From an uncultured Candidatus Saccharibacteria bacterium (GTDB lineage Bacteria > Patescibacteriota > Minisyncoccia > Phycocordibacterales > Phycocordibacteraceae), in contig CAYJLK010000002.1 in NCBI GenBank assembly GCA_964371445.1, forward strand, positions 43,718-107,717: a stretch of 64,000 bases of DNA, written 5' to 3'. How positions within the stretch are numbered: position 1 is the first letter of the stretch; every line of letters starts with the position of its first letter. The notes beneath the pieces were generated by a model, which saw only the letters and a program-made list of their open reading frames with translations, did not search any database and was not told where the DNA came from. Positions 10,031 through 54,231 of this stretch are shown one piece after another. The translations under genes and the position numbers were made by a program.

Positions 10031-10546
10031 TTACTCCCTTCTGTCTCTTAGTTTGTTTCCCATATCTTTTCGAGCAATCTCAATCTGTTCTGGGGTGACG
10101 CGAAGCTCGCCCTTCACCTCTTCTGCTCCTGTCCTACGCATTTCTTCCTCAACGATACCTCGTGACTTCGTGTATGCTTCTTCACTCTGTTCCTTCTCCA
10201 TCTCTGCGCCCGAGGAGAAAAGCTTTGCCTCTTTCTTTAAAGCTTTTGCATTCAGAGCAGCACCCATTCCTGTGAAAATACCTCCAGCACCAGCTAAGGG
10301 GTTGCCGGTGAGGGTTGCCGCAACTCCAAGTGAAGTCGCGACGGCTGAAATTCCAAGTGAAGCCTTAGCCATGGTTCTCTTCTTTTTTGCGTCTATTTCC
10401 ATCTCCTTGCTATCTTCTGCACGCATGTCTCCAACATGAGCCGCCGTGACAAATTCTCTTCGCTTCTCTCTCGGAACGAATGGCTCGTCCTTTCTGTTTG
10501 GTATTTTTTCCATGCCCATGAGTATACCACCGGCAAAAACACACAA
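10031..10546 (-). CDS. hypothetical protein inserted between rpsJ and rplC
   Basis: 171 aa with a Gly/Ala-rich hydrophobic segment (ASLGISAVATSLGVAATLTGNPLAGAGGIFTGMGAAL) flanked by charged Lys/Glu-rich regions. No recognisable family. Local GC is visibly lower than the flanking ribosomal genes. Confidence 0.5.
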   Translation of the reverse strand: MCVFAGGILMGMEKIPNRKDEPFVPREKRREFVTAAHVGDMRAEDSKEMEIDAKKKRTMAKASLGISAVATSLGVAATLTGNPLAGAGGIFTGMGAALNAKALKKEAKLFSSGAEMEKEQSEEAYTKSRGIVEEEMRRTGAEEVKGELRVTPEQIEIARKDMGNKLRDRRE

Positions 10547-10641
10547 CCGCCCTTATGGGCGGTTGTGTTCCGCGGAGCCACGCCCGCTTATTGTTTAAGT
10601 TAGGACAGACTCGCAGCTTTTTGTGTTTTCTTGGTCGTCGC

Positions 10642-11058
10642 TTAAACCATTTTCACATCTATCGTGACGCCGCTTGGGAGATTGAGGTTCGTGAGGGCCT
10701 CGATTACCTTCGGGGAGGGGTTCATGATGTCGATGAGGCGCTTATGGACGCGCATCTCGAACTGCTCTCTCGCGTCCTTATGGACGAAGGTCGAGCGGTT
10801 GACTGTCCAACGCTTGATCTCGGTCGGAAGCGGCACAGGTCCGACGACCGTCGCGTCGAAACGCGCTGCGGTGTCCATAATCTGCTTTACCGAGAGATCG
10901 AGAATCTTGTGCTCATAGGCACGGACGCGGATGCGGAGCTTGTGCTCCACCGGGACCACTGCGGCTACCTTCTTCGCGGCGCGCTTGCCCTCCGTAGCTT
11001 TCGCGGAGGAGGACTTCGGAGCGGCCTTCGCTTTCGGTTTTGCTGTCGCTGTTGCCAT
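10642..11058 (-). CDS. rpsJ: 30S ribosomal protein S10 with Lys/Ala-rich N-terminal extension
   Basis: 138 aa versus about 102 typical. About 35 aa of KPKAKAAPKSSSAKATEGKRAAKK precede the S10 core (KLRIRVRAYEHKILDLSVKQIMD...). Confidence 0.9.
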   Translation of the reverse strand: MATATAKPKAKAAPKSSSAKATEGKRAAKKVAAVVPVEHKLRIRVRAYEHKILDLSVKQIMDTAARFDATVVGPVPLPTEIKRWTVNRSTFVHKDAREQFEMRVHKRLIDIMNPSPKVIEALTNLNLPSGVTIDVKMV

Positions 11059-11080: not shown

Positions 11081-12280
<1,200 letters not shown>

Positions 12281-12442
12281 ATCGGTTAATTTATTCTGTT
12301 AAATCACGAATAATTCCGACGTGAGTCGGAACAAACTCCTAAGCTTGCCGACTCACAAAAGCAGACAAGCCAAAGAGCGACGCCAAGATGCGTTACCTAT
12401 GAATGTACCCGAGCCCGCCTAAAAGTGCAAGAGTTTGGAAAA

Positions 12443-12470
12443 GAAAAAAGCGGAAGGGTTCCCTCCGCTT
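12443..12470 (-). terminator. rho-independent terminator for the minus-strand gene at 12495-12860
   Basis: Hairpin agcggaaggg-ttc-cctccgct preceded on the + strand by aaaaaa, which is the U-run on the minus strand. Confidence 0.5.
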
Positions 12471-12494
12471 TGTGGCGCCTCTGGCGCCGGTGCT

Positions 12495-12860
12495 TCATGC
12501 TTTTTTTGCCTCTTCCTTGGCTTTCGGCTTGACGGCTTCGGCCTTTGCCGGCTTCGCGTCGGCGGGCTTGGCGTCTTTTGCCTTCTTGACCTTCTTGGCC
12601 TTTTTCGCCTTCTTGTCTTTCTTGACTTCTTTCTTGTCGACCTTGGCGACCGCAGTCTTGGCGACGGCCTGGGACTTGTCGGCCTTGGCTGCAGCGAGCG
12701 TCGGCGCCGGCGTTGGCGGCTTGACGGTCACGGCCTTGACGGTGGCGGTCTGGGTCTTACCGTCCTGGGCGGCGGCGGCCGGCAGGGCGAGGGCGGAAGC
12801 TATGGCGATGGACGAAAGGAACAATAATGTGCGTTTCACTTGAACCTCCTTTGGGAACAC
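12495..12860 (-). CDS. small secreted Lys/Ala-rich low-complexity protein (histone H1-like tail composition)
   Basis: 121 aa. Signal peptide MFPKEVQVKRTLLFLSSIAIASALALPAAAAQ, then KKAKKAKKVKKAKDAKPADAKPAKAEAVKPKAKEEAKKA. Confidence 0.55.
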   Translation of the reverse strand: MFPKEVQVKRTLLFLSSIAIASALALPAAAAQDGKTQTATVKAVTVKPPTPAPTLAAAKADKSQAVAKTAVAKVDKKEVKKDKKAKKAKKVKKAKDAKPADAKPAKAEAVKPKAKEEAKKA

Positions 12861-12984
12861 CCAACAATTATGGGTACCCCGGATACTACACCTCTTTTGT
12901 TCCTTGTAAAGGACCCTTCGAACACAGCGGCCGCCCCCCCGGGCGGCCGCTGTGTGTGCATAAGGATATGCTAGTCTTTATGTT

Positions 12985-13167
12985 ATGGAGATATTGATTG
13001 GCTTGGTTCTGGCGATTTTAGGAATTCCGCTCTTAGTATTTGGGATTCTGATGTTTATTAAATCGGACGGTTGGCTCTTTTTCACTAAAGCACTATTAGT
13101 AATCCTCATTGGTCTCTTGTTATCCACGACATCCTTTGTATTTCTGAGCGACGGGTTTGGGTTTTGA
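12985..13167 (+). CDS. tiny two-TM membrane protein
   Basis: 60 aa, almost entirely hydrophobic (ILIGLVLAILGIPLLVFGILMF ... ALLVILIGLLLSTTSFVFL). Lies in an AT-rich patch. Confidence 0.4.
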   Translation: MEILIGLVLAILGIPLLVFGILMFIKSDGWLFFTKALLVILIGLLLSTTSFVFLSDGFGF

Positions 13168-13191
13168 TGGAATTTCTTACTTACTACTTAA

Positions 13192-13491
13192 ATGAATACT
13201 GAAATTCGTAATGCCATAATTAAGTTGTTCGACAAACATGCGAGTCGTTCTCAAGATTGGTTAGTGTCGGAGATTCGTGATTTGGGGTTAGTCGATACAG
13301 ATGGTAGAGAAGTTGTCCGAACAATAGGGTTGATGGAAGATGCGGGAGAATTGCAGAAATTAGATATAGGGGTTTATCGACTTACTCTCAAAGCGATAGA
13401 AGCAGAGGCTCCTTGGTTACAAAAATGCAAAAATTATATAATCAAGAATTGGCTCGCTTTAGTGGCACTGATTATCGCCCTATTTAAGTAA
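13192..13491 (+). CDS. hypothetical small protein with C-terminal TM anchor
   Basis: 99 aa ending NWLALVALIIALFK; AT-rich; no recognisable domain. Confidence 0.45.
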   Translation: MNTEIRNAIIKLFDKHASRSQDWLVSEIRDLGLVDTDGREVVRTIGLMEDAGELQKLDIGVYRLTLKAIEAEAPWLQKCKNYIIKNWLALVALIIALFK

Positions 13492-13509
13492 CGCGGTTTT
13501 TGAAGCCTT

Positions 13510-15657
13510 TTATTTGCGCGATGCGATGATGTCGTCCGCGACGTTCTTCGGGACCGTATCATAATGATCGAACTCCATCGTCATCGAGCCACGGCCTTCG
13601 GTCATCGAGCGAAGCGTGGTGGTGTAGCCGAACATTTCAGAAAGCGGGACCTTCGCGTGGACTACCTTGTTCATGCCGCGCTCTTCCATACCTTCTATCT
13701 GAGCGCGCTTGCCGGAGAGATTGCCGGTGATGTCGCCCATGAACTGATCCGGCACGATGACTTCGACGCGCATGATCGGTTCGAGGATGACCGGCTTCGC
13801 CTTCTGTGCCGCTTCCTTAAACGCCATCGAAGCCGCAATCTTGAAGGCGATTTCCGACGAGTCGACATCGTGGTAACTGCCGTCGTAGAGGTCGACTGAG
13901 ACGTCGACCATCGGGAAGCCGGCGAGGAAGCCGCGCGACATCGCTTCGCGGAGCCCCTTCTCCACTGGTGTGATGAACTCCTGAGGAATGACACCGCCCT
14001 TGATGTTGTTGATGAATTCGAAATGATCCTCGCGCATGACGTTCTTTGCAACCTTCTTCTCCGGATCCACCGGTTCCATCTTTTTCATGCGGATCTTCAC
14101 ATGACCATACTGGCCGCGGCCGCCGGTCTGCTTGATGTACTTCCCTTCCGCCTCCGAAGATCCGAGAATCGTCTCGCGATACGCCACTTGCGGCTTTCCT
14201 ACATCGGCAACAACGTTGAACTCGCGCTTCATACGGTCGACGAGAATTTCCAAATGCAGTTCGCCCATGCCTGAGATGATGGTCTCGTTCGTCTCTTCAT
14301 CAGTCTTGATGCGGAAGGTCGGGTCCTCATCCGAGAGCTTGCGTAGCGCAACACCCATCTTCTCCTGATCGGCCTTGGTCTTGGGCTCGATGCGAAGCGA
14401 TACCACCGGCTCGGGGAACTTGATCTCCTCGAGCATGATCGGATTCGCTTCATCGCAGAGCGTGTGCGACGTTTTCGTATCTTTGAGGCCGACGGCGGCG
14501 GCAATCTCGCCCGTGAACACCTGGGAGACTTCTTCGCGCTTATCGGCCTGGAGCCGGACGATGCGGCTAATGCGCTCTTTAGAGCCTGTCGTCGAGTTAT
14601 AGACGTACGAGCCGGCGGTGAGCGTGCCCGAATACACACGGAAGAAGGTCAGCGCGCCGACGAACGGGTCGGTCTGGAGCTTGAAGGCGAGCGCGCAGAA
14701 CGGCTCGTCGTCGTTTGCATGGCGTTCGATCGGCTCACCGGTCTTCGGGTTCGTGCCGGTGGCGGGCGGGAGGTCGAGCGGAGACGGGAGATAGTCGACG
14801 ACGGCGTCGAGCACGAGCTGGACGCCTTTGTTCTTAAGCGCCGAGCCCGTGTATACCGGGAAGACTTCGTTTGCGATGACCGCCTTGCGTAATATATTTT
14901 TCAATTCATCCACGCTCGGCTCTGTGCCCTCGAGGTACGCGCCCATCGCGGCATCATCGTTCTCGACGATGCGTTCGACGAGCTCGGCACGATACTTCTT
15001 CGCGTCTTCGAGAAGATTCGCCGGTATGTCCCCTTCGATGACATCCTCACCCATATTCCCCGAAAAGGTATATGCCTTCATCGTGAGCAGGTCGACGCAC
15101 CCTTCATGTGCGGACTCTTCGCCGATAGGGATCTGCATGCGAATAGCCTTCGGCGAGAGCCGATCGAGGATGCTCGCGTAGGAACGCTCGAAGGATGCTC
15201 CCGTGCGATCGAGCTTGTTGATGAAGCAGACACGCGGCACCTGAGCCTCGTCGGCATAACGCCAGTTGGTCTCGGACTGCGGCTCCACGCCCGCGACACC
15301 GTCGAAGACGACGATAGCACCGTCAAGCACGCGCATCGAGCGCTTCACTTCAGCAGTGAAATCGATATGTCCCGGCGTGTCGATAACATTGAAACGGAAT
15401 TTCTTCGCCGTATCCTTCTTGTCCTTCTCGCCCGTCTTCGTCCAGAAACAGGTGATAGCGGCGGCGGTGATGGTGATGCCGCGTTCGCGCTCCTGTTCCA
15501 TCCAGTCGGTGGTCGTCTCGCCCTCATGCACCTCGCCGATCTTGTGCTGAGAACCCGTATAGAAAAGGACGCGCTCGCTGGTGGTCGTCTTCCCCGCGTC
15601 AATGTGCGCGATGATGCCGAAATTGCGTACTTTCTCGAGCGGATAGTCTCTGTTCAT
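13510..15657 (-). CDS. fusA: elongation factor G
   Basis: Trimmed to [26 protein letters not shown] (ATG at 15657). Full EF-G domain set through the C-terminus. Confidence 0.93.
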
Positions 15658-15786
15658 AAAATGGGTAAAAAATAAAAGCGCCGTGGCGTTATTGCTAAGA
15701 CTACTACCAAACGAGCTGAGTGACAAATGCGTGTCTGCACATATTTGTCCGAAGCGAGTGCAGGGAGGAAGCTCGGCTCTGCGAGC

Positions 15787-16251
15787 TTACCAAGCGAAAT
15801 GGGCAAAGGCCTTGTTCGCGTCCGCCATGCGGTGCATCTCATCCTTCTTCTTGATCGCGTCGCCTTCGTTCTTGGCGGCGAGGAGAAGTTCGGCGGCGAG
15901 CTTCTCGGCCATCGGCTTCCCTTTCTTCGCGCGCGCAGCGCCGATGAGCCAGCGGAAGGAGAGCGCCAGGCGGCGGGACTGCGGGACTTCACGTGGCACC
16001 TGGTAGTTGGCGCCGCCGACGCGGCGGGAACGCACTTCCATAAGCGGCGAGACGTTGCGAAGCGCGGATTCAAACGTCTCAAGCGGGTTTGCACCGCCCT
16101 TCTCTATCTCAGCGAGAGCGCCATAGACAACAGCGCGTGCCGTATCCTTCTTCCCGCTCCACATAACGGCATTGATGAAACGAGTCAGCGTCTCAGAACC
16201 GTACTTGAGGTCCGGTCGCCAGGTGCGCTTTTTCTTTAACGGACGTCTCAT
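15787..16251 (-). CDS. rpsG: 30S ribosomal protein S7
   Basis: Trimmed to MRRPLKKKRTWRPDLKYGSETLTRFINAVMWSGKK.... The start overlaps the S12 stop. Confidence 0.9.
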   Translation of the reverse strand: MRRPLKKKRTWRPDLKYGSETLTRFINAVMWSGKKDTARAVVYGALAEIEKGGANPLETFESALRNVSPLMEVRSRRVGGANYQVPREVPQSRRLALSFRWLIGAARAKKGKPMAEKLAAELLLAAKNEGDAIKKKDEMHRMADANKAFAHFAW

Positions 16252-16252
16252 A

Positions 16253-16660
16253 TTACTTCGGGCGCTTCGCACCGTAACGCGAACGCGAACGACGGCGCTT
16301 CTCGATGCCGCTCGTGTCGAGCTTGCCGCGTATAATGGTGTACTGCACGCCGATATCCTTCACGCGGCCGCCGCGAAGCATCACCACCGAGTGTTCCTGG
16401 AGGTTGTGCCCTTCGCCGGGGATGTAGGCCGTAACTTCCATCCCGTTCGTGAGGCGGACACGGGCGATCTTGCGGATAGCGGAGTTCGGCTTTCTCGGGG
16501 TCTTCGTCGTCACCTTGGTGCAGACGCCGCGCTTGAAGGGAGAGGGATAGAACGTCGGACGATTCGAGAGTGCATTAAAACCGCGAGCAAGCGCCGGCTT
16601 GCTCGTCTTCGACGATTTCGACTTGCGGCCCTTCTTGGAGAGCTGATTGATGGTAGACAT
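16253..16660 (-). CDS. rpsL: 30S ribosomal protein S12
   Basis: Trimmed to [17 protein letters not shown]... (ATG at 16660). The ORF-track upstream extension is Arg/Pro-rich read-through. Confidence 0.9.
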
Positions 16661-51598: not shown

Positions 51599-53332
51599 GT
51601 GCACATGTTCCCGCTCCACGACTCGCTTGACGACACCCTGCGCGAAGAACTCGCGCTGCACGACGACTTGACCGCTGCCTTGCTCTCGCGCCGCGGCGTG
51701 ACGACGAAAGAAGGCGCGGAACGATTTTTGAATCCGTCATACGACCTACACGTGCACGATCCGTTCCTGATGACGGATATGCAAAAAGCGGCGGAGCGAT
51801 TTGCACGCGCGATTATTTCGGGAGAAAAAATCGCGGTGTGGAGCGACTACGATTGCGACGGCATCCCGGGCGCAGTGCTCCTGCATGATTTCTTGAAAAA
51901 AGCCGGCGCGAATTTTGAGAATTACATACCTCATAGACACAACGAGGGGTACGGAATGAATATCTCTGGTATCGAAAAATTATCAAAGAGCGGTGTGCAG
52001 CTAATCGTCACGGTTGACTCCGGCATCACCGACACTGAACCGGTCGCGCGCGCGCGGGAGCTCGGCATAGAAGTCATCGTCACCGACCATCACCTTCCGG
52101 GTGAAAAATTGCCCGACGCATTCGCCATTCTGAATCCGAATGCGCGCGCCGACGAAACGTATCCGTATAAAAGTCTCTGTGGCTCCGGTGTCGCGTGGAA
52201 GCTCGTCTGTGCAACACTCGCCGTCGCCCCCAAGCTTCGCGCGAACGTGCCGGAGGGCTGGGAGAAGTGGCTCCTTGATATGGTCGGGCTCGCGACCATC
52301 GCCGACATGGTCCCGCTTACGGGTGAGAACCGCGTGCTCGCCACCTACGGCCTCCGCGTGCTCCGCAAATCGCCGCGTACTGGTTTGCAGAAAATGCTCC
52401 GCGGGATGCGCGTCGAACAACGCGCCGTTACCGAAGACGATGTCGGATTTATGATTGCACCGCGGGTCAACGCGGCGAGCCGCCTCGGCGAAGCACGCGA
52501 CGCATTCCAGCTCTTCACGACAACCGACGAGAGCGAAGCGGACCTGCTCGCGAAGAAACTCGAGAAGTTGAATCGGGAGCGCAAGGCACAGGCGGGCGCC
52601 ATCACGCGCGCGGTGCACACGCGGCTGAAAGAGCGCGGTGAGCCTCGAACCATCATCGCACTCGGCGATCCCGAGTGGCGTCCCGCACTTCTCGGACTCG
52701 TCGCGAATACCATTGCCGACGAATATGAACGGCCGGTATTCCTCTGGGGACGCGAGGGGAACATGAGTCTGAAGGGCTCATTTCGAAGCGGCGGCGGGGC
52801 CAGAATGATGGAGCTCCTAAACGCGACCGAGAACACCTTTGCACAATTCGGCGGACATGCGGCCGCAGGAGGTTTCACTCTCATCGATACGGAAGTGTTT
52901 TTCTTGGAAGATCGACTCGTCGAAGCGTATGCGCGCCTCACCGCCGACGCCGAACAGATTGATCCGCTCGTCGCTCGCGCTGACGCAGTGATCACTCCAG
53001 AAGAAGCGACGCACTCCTTCTTGCAGAAGATTGAACGCCTCGCTCCCTTCGGACAGGGTAACCAAAAACCGGTGTTCTTATTGCGCGATGTGTCTCTGCG
53101 AGAGATTTCACGCTTCGGAAAAGCAGAGGAACACCTCAAATTAAAAATCGCCGTCGATGAGAGTGACAGCAGTATCGACGCAGTCACATTCTTCGTCAAA
53201 GGTGCCATCGCGCGCACGGCGGAGAGACTGTTGCACGATAGCCGCGTGAATCTCCTCGCACACCTCGAGCGCGACACCTTCAGCCGCGGCACTCCCGTCC
53301 GCCTGCGACTTTTAGATATCAGAGTTGTATAG
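51599..53332 (+). CDS. recJ: single-stranded-DNA-specific exonuclease RecJ
   Basis: DHH (SDYDCDGI, VDSGITD, TDHH) and DHHA1 domains. Confidence 0.88.
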   Translation: MHMFPLHDSLDDTLREELALHDDLTAALLSRRGVTTKEGAERFLNPSYDLHVHDPFLMTDMQKAAERFARAIISGEKIAVWSDYDCDGIPGAVLLHDFLKKAGANFENYIPHRHNEGYGMNISGIEKLSKSGVQLIVTVDSGITDTEPVARARELGIEVIVTDHHLPGEKLPDAFAILNPNARADETYPYKSLCGSGVAWKLVCATLAVAPKLRANVPEGWEKWLLDMVGLATIADMVPLTGENRVLATYGLRVLRKSPRTGLQKMLRGMRVEQRAVTEDDVGFMIAPRVNAASRLGEARDAFQLFTTTDESEADLLAKKLEKLNRERKAQAGAITRAVHTRLKERGEPRTIIALGDPEWRPALLGLVANTIADEYERPVFLWGREGNMSLKGSFRSGGGARMMELLNATENTFAQFGGHAAAGGFTLIDTEVFFLEDRLVEAYARLTADAEQIDPLVARADAVITPEEATHSFLQKIERLAPFGQGNQKPVFLLRDVSLREISRFGKAEEHLKLKIAVDESDSSIDAVTFFVKGAIARTAERLLHDSRVNLLAHLERDTFSRGTPVRLRLLDIRVV

Positions 53333-53339
53333 TACCCAC

Positions 53340-53759
53340 ATGAAATTCACCATCCATGCCGACGGGGGAGCACGGGGGAACCCGGGACCAAGCGGTGCAG
53401 GCGCGGTCGTGCGCGACGAGTTCGGCAGTATCGTCGCGAGCGTTTCAAAATTTCTCGGTCACCGCACAAATAATTTCGCCGAGTACGAGGCGGTCATCCT
53501 CGCCTTTGAGGAACTCCTGAAGCTCGTGCCGAGCGCCGAGCGCGAGCTCACCGATGTGACGGTAAAAATGGACAGCGAGCTGGTAGTGAAGCAGATGAAA
53601 AAAGAATACAAAGTGCGGCATCCGGTCCTCAAAGAACAGCAGGCGCGCCTCGCGCAGGTCGCCGGCGCCTTCGGCACGGTGACCTTCATGCACGTCTTCC
53701 GCGAAGAAAATTCCGACGCCGACGCCCTCGCCAACGAAGCGATGGACCGTGGTGCATAA
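53340..53759 (+). CDS. rnhA: ribonuclease HI
   Basis: MKFTIHADGGARGNPGPSGAG...NNFAEYEA...; ATG at 53340 just after the recJ stop. Confidence 0.85.
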   Translation: MKFTIHADGGARGNPGPSGAGAVVRDEFGSIVASVSKFLGHRTNNFAEYEAVILAFEELLKLVPSAERELTDVTVKMDSELVVKQMKKEYKVRHPVLKEQQARLAQVAGAFGTVTFMHVFREENSDADALANEAMDRGA

Positions 53760-54231
53760 TCTTAAGAACATGATTTCTACTTCAACAATGCAAGTTTTGG
53801 TTCCATCACTTTCAGCTCTTGTTGGGGCAGTAATAGGTGCGACTGCGGCTCTTGCGGGTGTACGTTGGCAAATTATTGCCGATCATAAACAAAAACGAGA
53901 TGAACAAATTTTTAACGCTCGTCGTGATGTTTATGCAGAAATAATGAGCATTCTGAATTATTCATTTTTAAAAGGGAAAGATTTAAATGCTGCACTTTCG
54001 GATCCGCATTTTAAAACGCAGGTGTCGATACATATGGGGGACTGTTTCAGCCGGGCGAGACCAATTGCAGGTTTAAGGCTCAGTGAAAAACTCCGTGAAC
54101 TTTATGGGGCGGAGATGCTTTTGTGGAAGCCTGAAAATACCGGTGAAAACACCGAGTTGGATAAAAAACGTGCTGCGCTGGCGAACGAAGTTGAGATCCT
54201 TATTCGTGAAGACCTTGGTATAACGGATTAA
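53749..54231 (+). CDS. hypothetical N-terminally anchored protein in an AT-rich segment
   Basis: 160 aa with a TM (VLVPSLSALVGAVIGATAALAGV). No family. Local GC is markedly lower than the genome. Confidence 0.5.
   Translation: MVHNLKNMISTSTMQVLVPSLSALVGAVIGATAALAGVRWQIIADHKQKRDEQIFNARRDVYAEIMSILNYSFLKGKDLNAALSDPHFKTQVSIHMGDCFSRARPIAGLRLSEKLRELYGAEMLLWKPENTGENTELDKKRAALANEVEILIREDLGITD

Follow-up and report, generated by a model that had tools for sequence, protein, structure and literature searches.

A probably foreign two-gene cassette, antisense between fusA and tuf, in a translation operon of a Patescibacteria bacterium

We analyzed a stretch of 64,000 nucleotides (nt) from contig CAYJLK010000002.1 of assembly GCA_964371445.1, hereafter the window, in which the interval between fusA and tuf contains two small genes, here called p60 and p99. 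The minus strand carries a translation operon in the order S12-S7-fusA-tuf-S10-L3. Pfam assigned S7 (15787-16272), fusA (13510-15726; GTP_EFTU, EFG_III, EFG_IV, and EFG_C), which encodes elongation factor G (EF-G), tuf (11081-12280), which encodes EF-Tu, S10 (10642-11058), and L3 (9296-9910). The fusA open reading frame (ORF) runs from a TTG at 15726 to the stop codon at 13510-13512; public gene calls give 715 amino acids (aa) and a start near 15657. An EF-G protein scan with one genome per species placed the organism in Candidatus Kaiserbacteria, which belong to the Patescibacteria within the Candidate Phyla Radiation (CPR). The EF-G proteins of the closest loci (L005-L008 and L011) are 80-90% identical to that of the window, which reaches 90% identity with a Kaiserbacteria EF-G; none of the genomes compared has an EF-G with more than 92% identity. 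In the window, fusA and tuf are 1,229 bp apart. Read from fusA, this interval holds p99 and p60 on the plus strand, antisense to the operon, followed by a hairpin and by a minus-strand gene for a protein rich in lysine and alanine (the K/A-rich gene).

The first-pass annotation had described an AT-rich mini-island between fusA and tuf, and a sliding-window analysis of the G+C content (GC) confirmed it. Positions 12961-13491 have a GC of 38.2%, compared with a mean of 57.1% (standard deviation 3.9%) for 530-nt windows across the 64 kb (z = -4.8), and the 530-nt window with the lowest GC begins at 12951. Likewise, the 500-nt bin from 13001 to 13500 has the lowest GC (39.2%) among 128 bins. The GC at third codon positions (GC3) is 0.475 for p60 and 0.36 for p99, compared with 0.75-0.76 for fusA, tuf, S10, L3, and the K/A-rich gene. 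Because this contrast falls at synonymous sites, the low GC is not a side effect of hydrophobic residues.

As that annotation had also stated, the island encodes two small membrane proteins antisense to the operon. According to its hydropathy, p60 (12985-13167; 60 aa) contains two hydrophobic helices, at about residues 1-25 and 30-55, that are joined by a KSDGW loop. The product of p99 (13192-13491; 99 aa) is predicted to consist of a winged-helix domain (residues 3-64), two short helices, and a hydrophobic tail anchor (residues 81-99). The two genes are separated by 24 nt (13168-13191), which are nearly identical in an alignment with a second copy of the pair on contig L002; the leader between the hairpin and the p60 start (12956-12984) is conserved in the same alignment. 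Comparison of the two copies gave ratios of nonsynonymous to synonymous divergence (dN/dS) of 0.25 for p60 and 0.12 for p99. The differences at codon positions 1/2/3 amount to 6/2/9 in p60 and 18/14/41 in p99. Judged by these substitution patterns, p60 and p99 are real genes under purifying selection.

The exact p60 protein was found in 25 blocks of the contig collection and was present on the 23 contigs examined. Ten loci from these contigs of other assemblies (L089-L098) are 99.5-100% identical to the window and show the collinear order tuf, K/A-rich gene, p60, p99, and fusA. Collinearity through both junctions in ten independent assemblies excludes an assembly chimera. All ten contigs of this population carry the cassette, and an empty site was seen in none of them. 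The gene callers used for these assemblies annotated p60 and the K/A-rich gene and missed p99, which left a seemingly empty gap of 343 nt before fusA. Several short contigs of the same population start at or near the hairpin (12895, 12904, and 12962). In L090, the fusA end seemed to be duplicated over 55 nt, an appearance caused by Ns in a scaffold gap. Scanning metagenome contigs for further copies returned only the already known contig of the Joint Genome Institute.

Relatives of the two proteins are rare. A word-indexed search of 5.8 billion clustered proteins yielded one other cluster each for p99 (76% identity) and p60 (88% identity). With the p99 pair as the query, HMMER detected 26 matches among 1.84 billion representatives, about 22 of which are full-length proteins of 100-119 aa. 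Their alignment revealed conserved M-x-D-A-G-E-L, R-L-T-L-K, and A-P motifs as well as a hydrophobic tail of the type N-W-I-A-I..A-L-I-I-S-L-I-A-L-F-K. In the p99 of the window and its two closest relatives, the tail is four residues shorter than in the rest of the family (NWLALVALIIALFK vs. NWIAIAALIISLVALFK). Neither p60 and p99 nor the K/A-rich protein gave a match above noise to Pfam, NCBIfam, PHROGs, or PADLOC. On the basis of the alignment, p99 belongs to a rare, previously undescribed family of ~100-aa proteins.

An AlphaFold model of p99, computed with a 24-sequence alignment, reached a mean predicted local distance difference test score (pLDDT) of 77.6, with values of 78-86 over residues 1-60; it superseded a run with two sequences only (pLDDT 69). 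The model consists of a helix (3-15), a strand (18-20), two helices (21-31 and 39-50), and two strands (54-58 and 61-64), followed by two short helices and the tail helix (87-98). This topology, a1-b1-a2-a3-b2-wing-b3, is that of a winged helix. In a Foldseek comparison with the PDB, the top matches were all winged-helix proteins, with probabilities of ~1 and root-mean-square deviations of 1.8-2.7 Å over 60-65 residues, at E-values of only 6e-3 to 0.1. They included SSO6202 PBP2, the MCM8 winged helix, cullin WHB, the Rok DNA-binding domain, the Rpa2 winged helix, the DpnI winged helix, AspA, the Fur DNA-binding domain, and TubR; a BFVD fold search returned generic winged-helix matches only. 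The weak profile matches of p99 were of the same kind, with AspA as the best (E = 0.012), followed by Fur/Zur, MarR, IdeR, and the MCM5 winged helix, and profile matches among the other family members comprised TrmB, PadR, and HTH_20. According to the model, p99 combines a winged-helix domain with a C-terminal anchor that ties it to the membrane. We infer from the fold that p99 may bind DNA.

The genomic neighborhoods of the p99 relatives are diverse. In L099, the closest outside relative (62% identical) stands alone between rnhA and recJ, with a GC3 of 0.41 compared with 0.52-0.61 for the flanking genes. Other relatives adjoin a large serine recombinase and an Mrr-like gene (Mrr_cat; L109), GIY-YIG genes (L105), or a Phd antitoxin gene, and one lies in an array of small ORFs with a phage-like appearance (L108). 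The downstream neighbors are related neither to each other nor to p60, and the p60-p99 pairing is kept in the window and L002 only. The unrelated neighbors of mobile or defence type indicate that the p99 family travels with such DNA and that p60 is not an obligate partner. The window itself contains an RNase H gene (53325-53759); the ORF behind it (region to 54231) encodes 160 aa, has no Pfam match, and lies in another patch of low GC (about 42-45% at 53700-53900). The L099 relative of p99 likewise adjoins rnhA. We detected no sequence similarity between the ORFs neighboring rnhA in the window and in L099.

To place the cassette relative to the operon, we compared the region downstream of fusA with that of the relatives. 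Convergent p99 and fusA are separated by 18 nt between their stop codons (13492-13509), and homology to L002 stops within this junction, at 13496. The terminator scan gave no call between the two stop codons. Beyond the cassette lies a perfect hairpin (12922-12955) with a G+C-rich stem of 15 bp and a CCCC loop. Its folding energy corresponds to z-scores of -7.3 on the plus strand and -6.2 on the minus strand, and it is one of nine perfect hairpins of at least 10 bp in the 64 kb. In the relatives L005-L011, a G+C-rich hairpin follows 15-30 nt past the fusA stop codon. The window hairpin aligns with these hairpins, shares the stem core GGCCGCCC with L008, and is retained in L002 with compensatory stem changes. 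The cassette separates it from the fusA stop codon, ~560 nt away. The simplest reading of the alignment is that positions 12922-12955 represent the fusA terminator hairpin, displaced by ~560 bp by the cassette. Since the hairpin is equivalent to those directly behind fusA in the relatives and yet ~560 nt away, the cassette would have the fusA stop codon on one side and the original fusA terminator on the other. The interval from fusA to the hairpin holds p60 and p99 only, neither of which matches a recombinase family. An AT-rich microhomology of 9-10 nt, ATAAA(A)G(G/A)CT, was noticed by eye at both cassette ends and judged not significant. No tRNA gene was found near the site, and Rfam searches over 12200-13600, at the gathering thresholds and at E <= 10, gave no credible RNA family.

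The first-pass annotation regarded fusA and tuf as normally adjacent. This holds for the non-CPR loci that we fetched, in which the spacer measures 28-419 bp, and fails for the Patescibacteria: in 37 loci of Patescibacteria type, the median spacer is 802 bp (85-5,059 bp), and in 14 further such loci tuf was not found within 3-6 kb. Thus, an interrupted fusA-tuf pair is the rule in this phylum. Among the closest relatives, the interval encodes a 216-aa membrane-anchored protein in L008, a DUF805 membrane protein in L011, and a 137-aa ORF in L006. In L007 (8150-8970), it carries a MntA/HepT pair (Pfam, E = 4e-14 and 7.5e-21) inside a 22-nt direct repeat, ATCGCGTCCAGAAAGTAAACCA, which corresponds to the last four fusA codons, the stop codon, and six further bases. 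L087 and L088 contain a 699-bp unit that encodes a single 166-aa protein and has the fusA end repeated on both sides over 41 nt (29 nt exact); a third, partial copy of this end follows after a RelB/YafQ pair and a 58-aa gene. The L087 segments concerned are 47-137, 1028-1105, and 1762-1804. In L005 (8130-8260), a second VAADIIASRK-stop sequence occurs ~60 nt past the real stop codon, and the real end is written in AT-rich synonymous codons. No integrase was visible in the short contigs of the repeat-bearing relatives. Judged from these loci, the fusA-tuf spacer of Kaiserbacteria is a variable slot that gathers small lineage-specific cargo. The repeats suggest that in several relatives the cargo entered by recombination in the last fusA codons, and that tiny cassettes have landed more than once near the fusA stop codon in Kaiserbacteria. 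A search of the literature for fusA as an integration target, or for fusA-tuf islands in CPR bacteria, returned nothing specific.

Two further observations concern the cargo of the relatives. In L014, at about 11348, a longer 3' fragment of fusA is duplicated ~3.2 kb downstream. The gene in the L087 unit belongs to a family of ~160-aa proteins (P0003-P0077; 75 clusters) without a Pfam or NCBIfam match, which, by the few names given, occurs mostly in Kaiserbacteria and Parcubacteria. Its members were seen directly behind fusA (L087, 1121-1621), after p99 (L002, 1245-1616), and between ftsZ and ftsA on the opposite strand (L086, 6001-6483), in each case inside a conserved operon.

The second copy of the pair informs on the age of the cassette. 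In contigs L002-L004, which derive from three other samples, p60 and p99 are adjacent and separated by the same 24-nt spacer. According to blastn, homology between L002 and the window extends from 12937, inside the hairpin, to 13496, 5 nt past the p99 stop codon, with 81.6% identity. The left end of L002 consists of the Kaiserbacteria tuf promoter and leader, ~600 bp from the cassette; the second copy thus occupies the same slot beside the same hairpin. It lies in a stretch of low GC throughout (42%), which additionally contains ORFs of 58 and 102 aa and, after p99, the gene of the 160-aa family. The synonymous divergence (dS) of p99 between the copies is 1.29, compared with 1.0-1.3 for the host fusA and 0.7-1.0 for the host tuf between these lineages. 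In contrast, the dS of p60 is 0.24, which is five-fold below that of p99 (Fisher's exact test, p = 3e-5) and far under the host values. The GC3 remains at 0.36-0.54 across both copies despite more than one substitution per synonymous site. Both genes are absent from L005, L006, L008, and L011, whose EF-G proteins are 80-90% identical to that of the window, and the tuf leader of L002 resembles that of L006, which itself lacks p60 and p99.

The two parts of the cassette have diverged to different extents. Leader, p60, and spacer (12937-13191; L002, 657-909) are ~91% identical between the copies, compared with ~76% for p99 (13192-13496; L002, 910-1214), with synonymous differences of 0.21 and 0.62, respectively (p = 3e-5). 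The conservation of the p60 part could reflect an extra constraint on the DNA or RNA, or a later exchange. A 49-aa antisense ORF (12978-13127, minus strand) is retained in both copies.

Recent horizontal acquisition had been proposed for the island. Its horizontal origin is supported by the GC3 values, the absence of the genes from four relatives, and the mobile-type neighborhoods of the p99 kin; that it was recent is not, given a nucleotide divergence of 18% and the p99 dS of 1.29. According to the first-pass annotation, ancestry would be indicated if sister genomes shared the genes, their position, and a similarly low GC. Exactly this arrangement was found once, in L002-L004, although the patchy distribution still argues against simple vertical descent. 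The search for similar two-gene cassettes, suggested at the same time, recovered this one other copy and no retention of the pairing across the p99 family. A foreign origin of undated age is the best reading of these sequence comparisons.

On this evidence, we regard it as very probable that p60 and p99 form a cassette of foreign composition that is under selection, runs antisense to the operon, and is lodged behind the fusA stop codon and ahead of the fusA terminator, in a slot that varies throughout the clade. The explanation that we favor for the locus as a whole, with somewhat more confidence than doubt, adds to this acquired cassette a proposal for a gated membrane module. The p60-p99 cassette of ~0.55 kb would have been acquired horizontally into the former 3' untranslated end of fusA. 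As no terminator is present at the fusA stop codon and the hairpin lies beyond the cassette, we infer that fusA transcripts may run through p99 and p60 as antisense RNA up to the hairpin. Strong transcription of the translation operon would then keep the cassette repressed. Whether read-through antisense RNA couples the expression of the cassette inversely to the activity of the operon, as this gene order suggests, we consider an evenly balanced question. The p99 protein might be anchored on the inner side of the membrane, where its winged helix would contact DNA or a partner, and p60 might be its membrane partner or effector. The pair might represent a conflict- or addiction-type membrane module derived from a mobile element, a suggestion that we make tentatively and with more doubt than conviction.

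Several results weigh against the acquired, gated cassette. On the fusA strand, the tail of the hairpin (TGTTCGAAGGGTCCTTT) is T-poor, and the terminator scan made no call there. The window contains no second fusA end at up to three mismatches, and the best local score equals chance. The cassette ends carry neither direct nor inverted flanking repeats, and no recombinase was found nearby. In the leader (12956-12984), we found no convincing promoter or Shine-Dalgarno sequence, and the promoter scan of the plus strand was negative. Searches of Pfam, NCBIfam, PHROGs, and PADLOC with p60 and p99 gave no match to a toxin, holin, defence, or phage family, and scans of 2.9 million IMG/VR contigs with the p99 pair, p60, and a p99 subfamily detected no relative. 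In the genomes surveyed, p60 is not a conserved partner of p99, as illustrated by the solo gene in L099, which weakens any fixed two-component mechanism. Finally, since the p99 dS resembles that of the host genes, the acquisition is not demonstrably recent, and long residence with vertical descent would be compatible with this value. Apart from these points, the missing Shine-Dalgarno sequence had been considered as a sign of foreign origin and was rejected, because the host tuf, S10, and L3 genes also lack one.

Vertical descent is therefore one of the explanations to be weighed. The genes could be ancestral to the Kaiserbacteria clade and lost in several lineages, with a low GC that results from selection or the local mutational context. 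The only other copy does sit in the same slot, beside the same hairpin and ~600 bp from the tuf promoter and leader, the p99 dS of 1.29 is like that of the host fusA (1.0-1.3), and the cassette is fixed in the sampled population. However, in hosts with a GC3 of ~0.75, both copies could hardly have stayed at 0.36-0.54 without renewed import. Moreover, the genes are missing from four relatives, one of which, L006, has a tuf leader similar to that of L002; the p60 dS of only 0.24 is far under the host values, and p99 relatives occur elsewhere in unrelated, mobile-type contexts. We thus consider descent from a common ancestor unlikely. At the other extreme, the ORFs could be spurious, either a non-coding AT-rich spacer or an assembly chimera. 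The failure of other gene calls to include p99, the missing Shine-Dalgarno and promoter sequences, and the contigs that break at the hairpin would agree with this notion, to which we assign a negligible probability in view of dN/dS values of 0.12-0.25 with an excess of third-position changes, a conserved family with a confidently predicted fold, and ten collinear assemblies.

The remaining explanations concern the kind of element, for which the first-pass annotation had been reminded of holin-like or toxin/addiction modules. In a toxin-antitoxin (TA) addiction module, p60 would be a membrane-damaging toxin of the GhoT, Hok, or holin type and p99 a tail-anchored antidote and autoregulator that binds its own promoter. 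GhoT is a two-transmembrane (two-TM) toxin of ~57 aa, and the sizes of p60 and p99 (60 and 99 aa) resemble those of GhoT and GhoS. Two small adjacent genes with a conserved 24-nt spacer, a patchy distribution, and a foreign composition are in line with such a module, as is the winged helix, a typical DNA-binding fold; that the same slot holds MntA/HepT in L007 and RelB/YafQ in L087 is circumstantial. Yet searches of Pfam, NCBIfam, and PADLOC revealed no GhoT/OrtT, GhoS, Hok, holin, or TA family match at E <= 1, p99 is helical with a winged helix and does not have the ferredoxin-like fold of GhoS, and p99 relatives occur without p60 among unrelated neighbors. The TA module is accordingly improbable in our judgment. 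Far less probable still is a prophage remnant that served lysis or superinfection exclusion and in which p60 would be a holin-like protein of class II. Small holins match p60 in size and in the two-TM layout, and one p99 relative is part of a phage-like array of small ORFs; however, endolysin, integrase, and structural genes were not found nearby, neither PHROGs nor the 2.9 million IMG/VR contigs yielded a match or relative, and the C-terminus of p60 is not charged, unlike that of typical holins. A further view, drawn from the relatives rather than from the window, would make the cassette one unit, with its repeats lost, of an integron-like array in which the last fusA codons of Kaiserbacteria serve as an attachment site and mini-cassettes without an integrase accrete in tandem between fusA and tuf. 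With every insertion, the fusA end would be restored, and older cassettes would be shifted further downstream together with the original terminator. Antisense read-through from fusA would gate the window cassette, which would be on only when transcription of the ribosomal operon falls. The cargo seen so far comprises toxin-antitoxin pairs, a gene of the widespread 160-aa family, and the p60-p99 pair. For the window, we see little chance that this array model applies.

The favored reading, an acquired antisense cassette behind fusA, has parallels among known elements. Its closest described analogues are integrative elements and islets at the 3' ends of housekeeping genes, such as tRNA and tmRNA islands and integrative and conjugative elements, which restore the gene end on insertion and likewise place cargo of foreign composition directly behind an essential conserved gene; one such element, Tn5253, is reported to integrate at the 3' part of rbgA (PMC8571831). 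As in such elements, the fusA end recurs as a flanking direct repeat around the cassettes of L007, L087/L088, and L005, and the original end, now displaced, still precedes the terminator. In contrast, the fusA cassettes are tiny (0.55-0.95 kb), lack an integrase, and reside inside the str operon, and the window copy is without a flanking repeat. The feature in the window is thus an ordinary small genomic islet of a familiar kind that carries a new protein family. TA systems of types II, V, and VII (RelB/YafQ, MntA/HepT, and GhoS/GhoT) are also small two-gene mobile modules, and the first two pairs occupy the same slot in relatives; unlike them, p60 and p99 have no membership in these groups by sequence or fold, and the p99 family is not tied to p60.

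The modeled p99 protein can be compared with two further groups. Residues 3-64 superpose at ~2 Å on winged-helix proteins such as the PadR-like AspA, Fur/Zur, MarR, the Rok domain, and TubR. Unlike these, p99 is predicted to have ~100 aa with a C-terminal membrane anchor, and no single family was significant. Winged helices also bind proteins, as do those of cullin WHB and Rpa2, both among the p99 matches. Protein p16.7 of phage phi29 and the regulators ToxR and CadC hold a domain of DNA-binding type at the cytoplasmic face of the membrane through one helix, as modeled for p99. The anchor of p16.7 is N-terminal and that of p99 C-terminal, and p99 is without the periplasmic sensor domain of ToxR and CadC. 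The likeness is one of architecture only; no homology was found, and no test aimed at it was made.

The K/A-rich gene between the hairpin and tuf is a different matter. It had been placed at 12495-12860 on the minus strand and described as encoding a signal-peptide protein made of pure KKAKKAKK repeats. Strand and signal-like N-terminus stand, and the start is corrected to a GTG at 12839 behind a Shine-Dalgarno sequence (AAAGGAGG), which gives a protein of 114 aa (12495-12839), also called with 114 aa in other assemblies. The description as pure repeats does not hold: the mature part, with 31% K, 26% A, and an isoelectric point of 10.2, opens with ~45 residues rich in T, A, V, and P. A promoter-like site, TTTACA-16-TAGTAT (12883-12910, minus strand), precedes the gene; one such site was found compared with 1.3 expected, so it is weak evidence alone. 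On the same strand, the terminator scan detected an intrinsic terminator (12447-12471) with an 11-bp stem followed by TTTTTTCTTTT. The K/A-rich gene has a GC3 of 0.76, shares the strand of the operon, and comes with a promoter-like site and a terminator of its own; it therefore belongs outside the island. We conclude that it is a separate gene of native composition for a secreted polycationic protein, outside the AT-rich cassette, and that the stretch from the fusA terminator to the tuf promoter, where it lies, is a second variable slot. No homologue was found in 80 related loci.

Other features of the operon were recorded. Upstream of tuf, a promoter and leader were assigned on the minus strand (12367-12430), with a -35 element TTGCAC (12425-12430) and a -10 element TACATT (12402-12407) at a spacing of 17 nt. 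A 27-nt core of the leader (12369-12395) is exactly conserved in L002, L005, L008, and L011 and differs slightly in L006. Within this region (12281-12430, minus strand), the 120-nt tuf leader folds at z = -4.7 and is not matched by Rfam; a regulatory role specific to the lineage is conceivable. Between S10 and L3 lies a second atypical insert, an ORF of 162-171 aa on the operon strand (10031-10546, minus) with a GC3 of 0.44. It directly follows a 12-bp hairpin with a T-tail (10541-10568), which shares an ACACA..CCGCCC/GGGCGG..TGTGT design with the fusA hairpin. The ORF gave weak matches only (PADLOC LeoBC, 1.9e-5; a PHROG endolysin region, 5e-4) and had no relative in the 80 related loci. S10 itself (10642-11058, minus) starts with a K/A/P-rich extension of ~40 residues (MATATAKPKAKAAPKSSSAKATEGKRAAKK...), similar in composition to the K/A-rich tract of the 114-aa protein.

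For annotation, the locus teaches that stretches of outlying composition inside the translation operons of CPR bacteria, seemingly untouchable regions, can be genuine genes under selection. The locus also yields a rare family of ~100-aa proteins, predicted to combine a winged helix with a membrane tail anchor and encountered in neighborhoods of mobile or defence type. If the fusA stop region is indeed a landing site, it would provide a defined chromosomal site at which to study gene gain in genetically intractable organisms.

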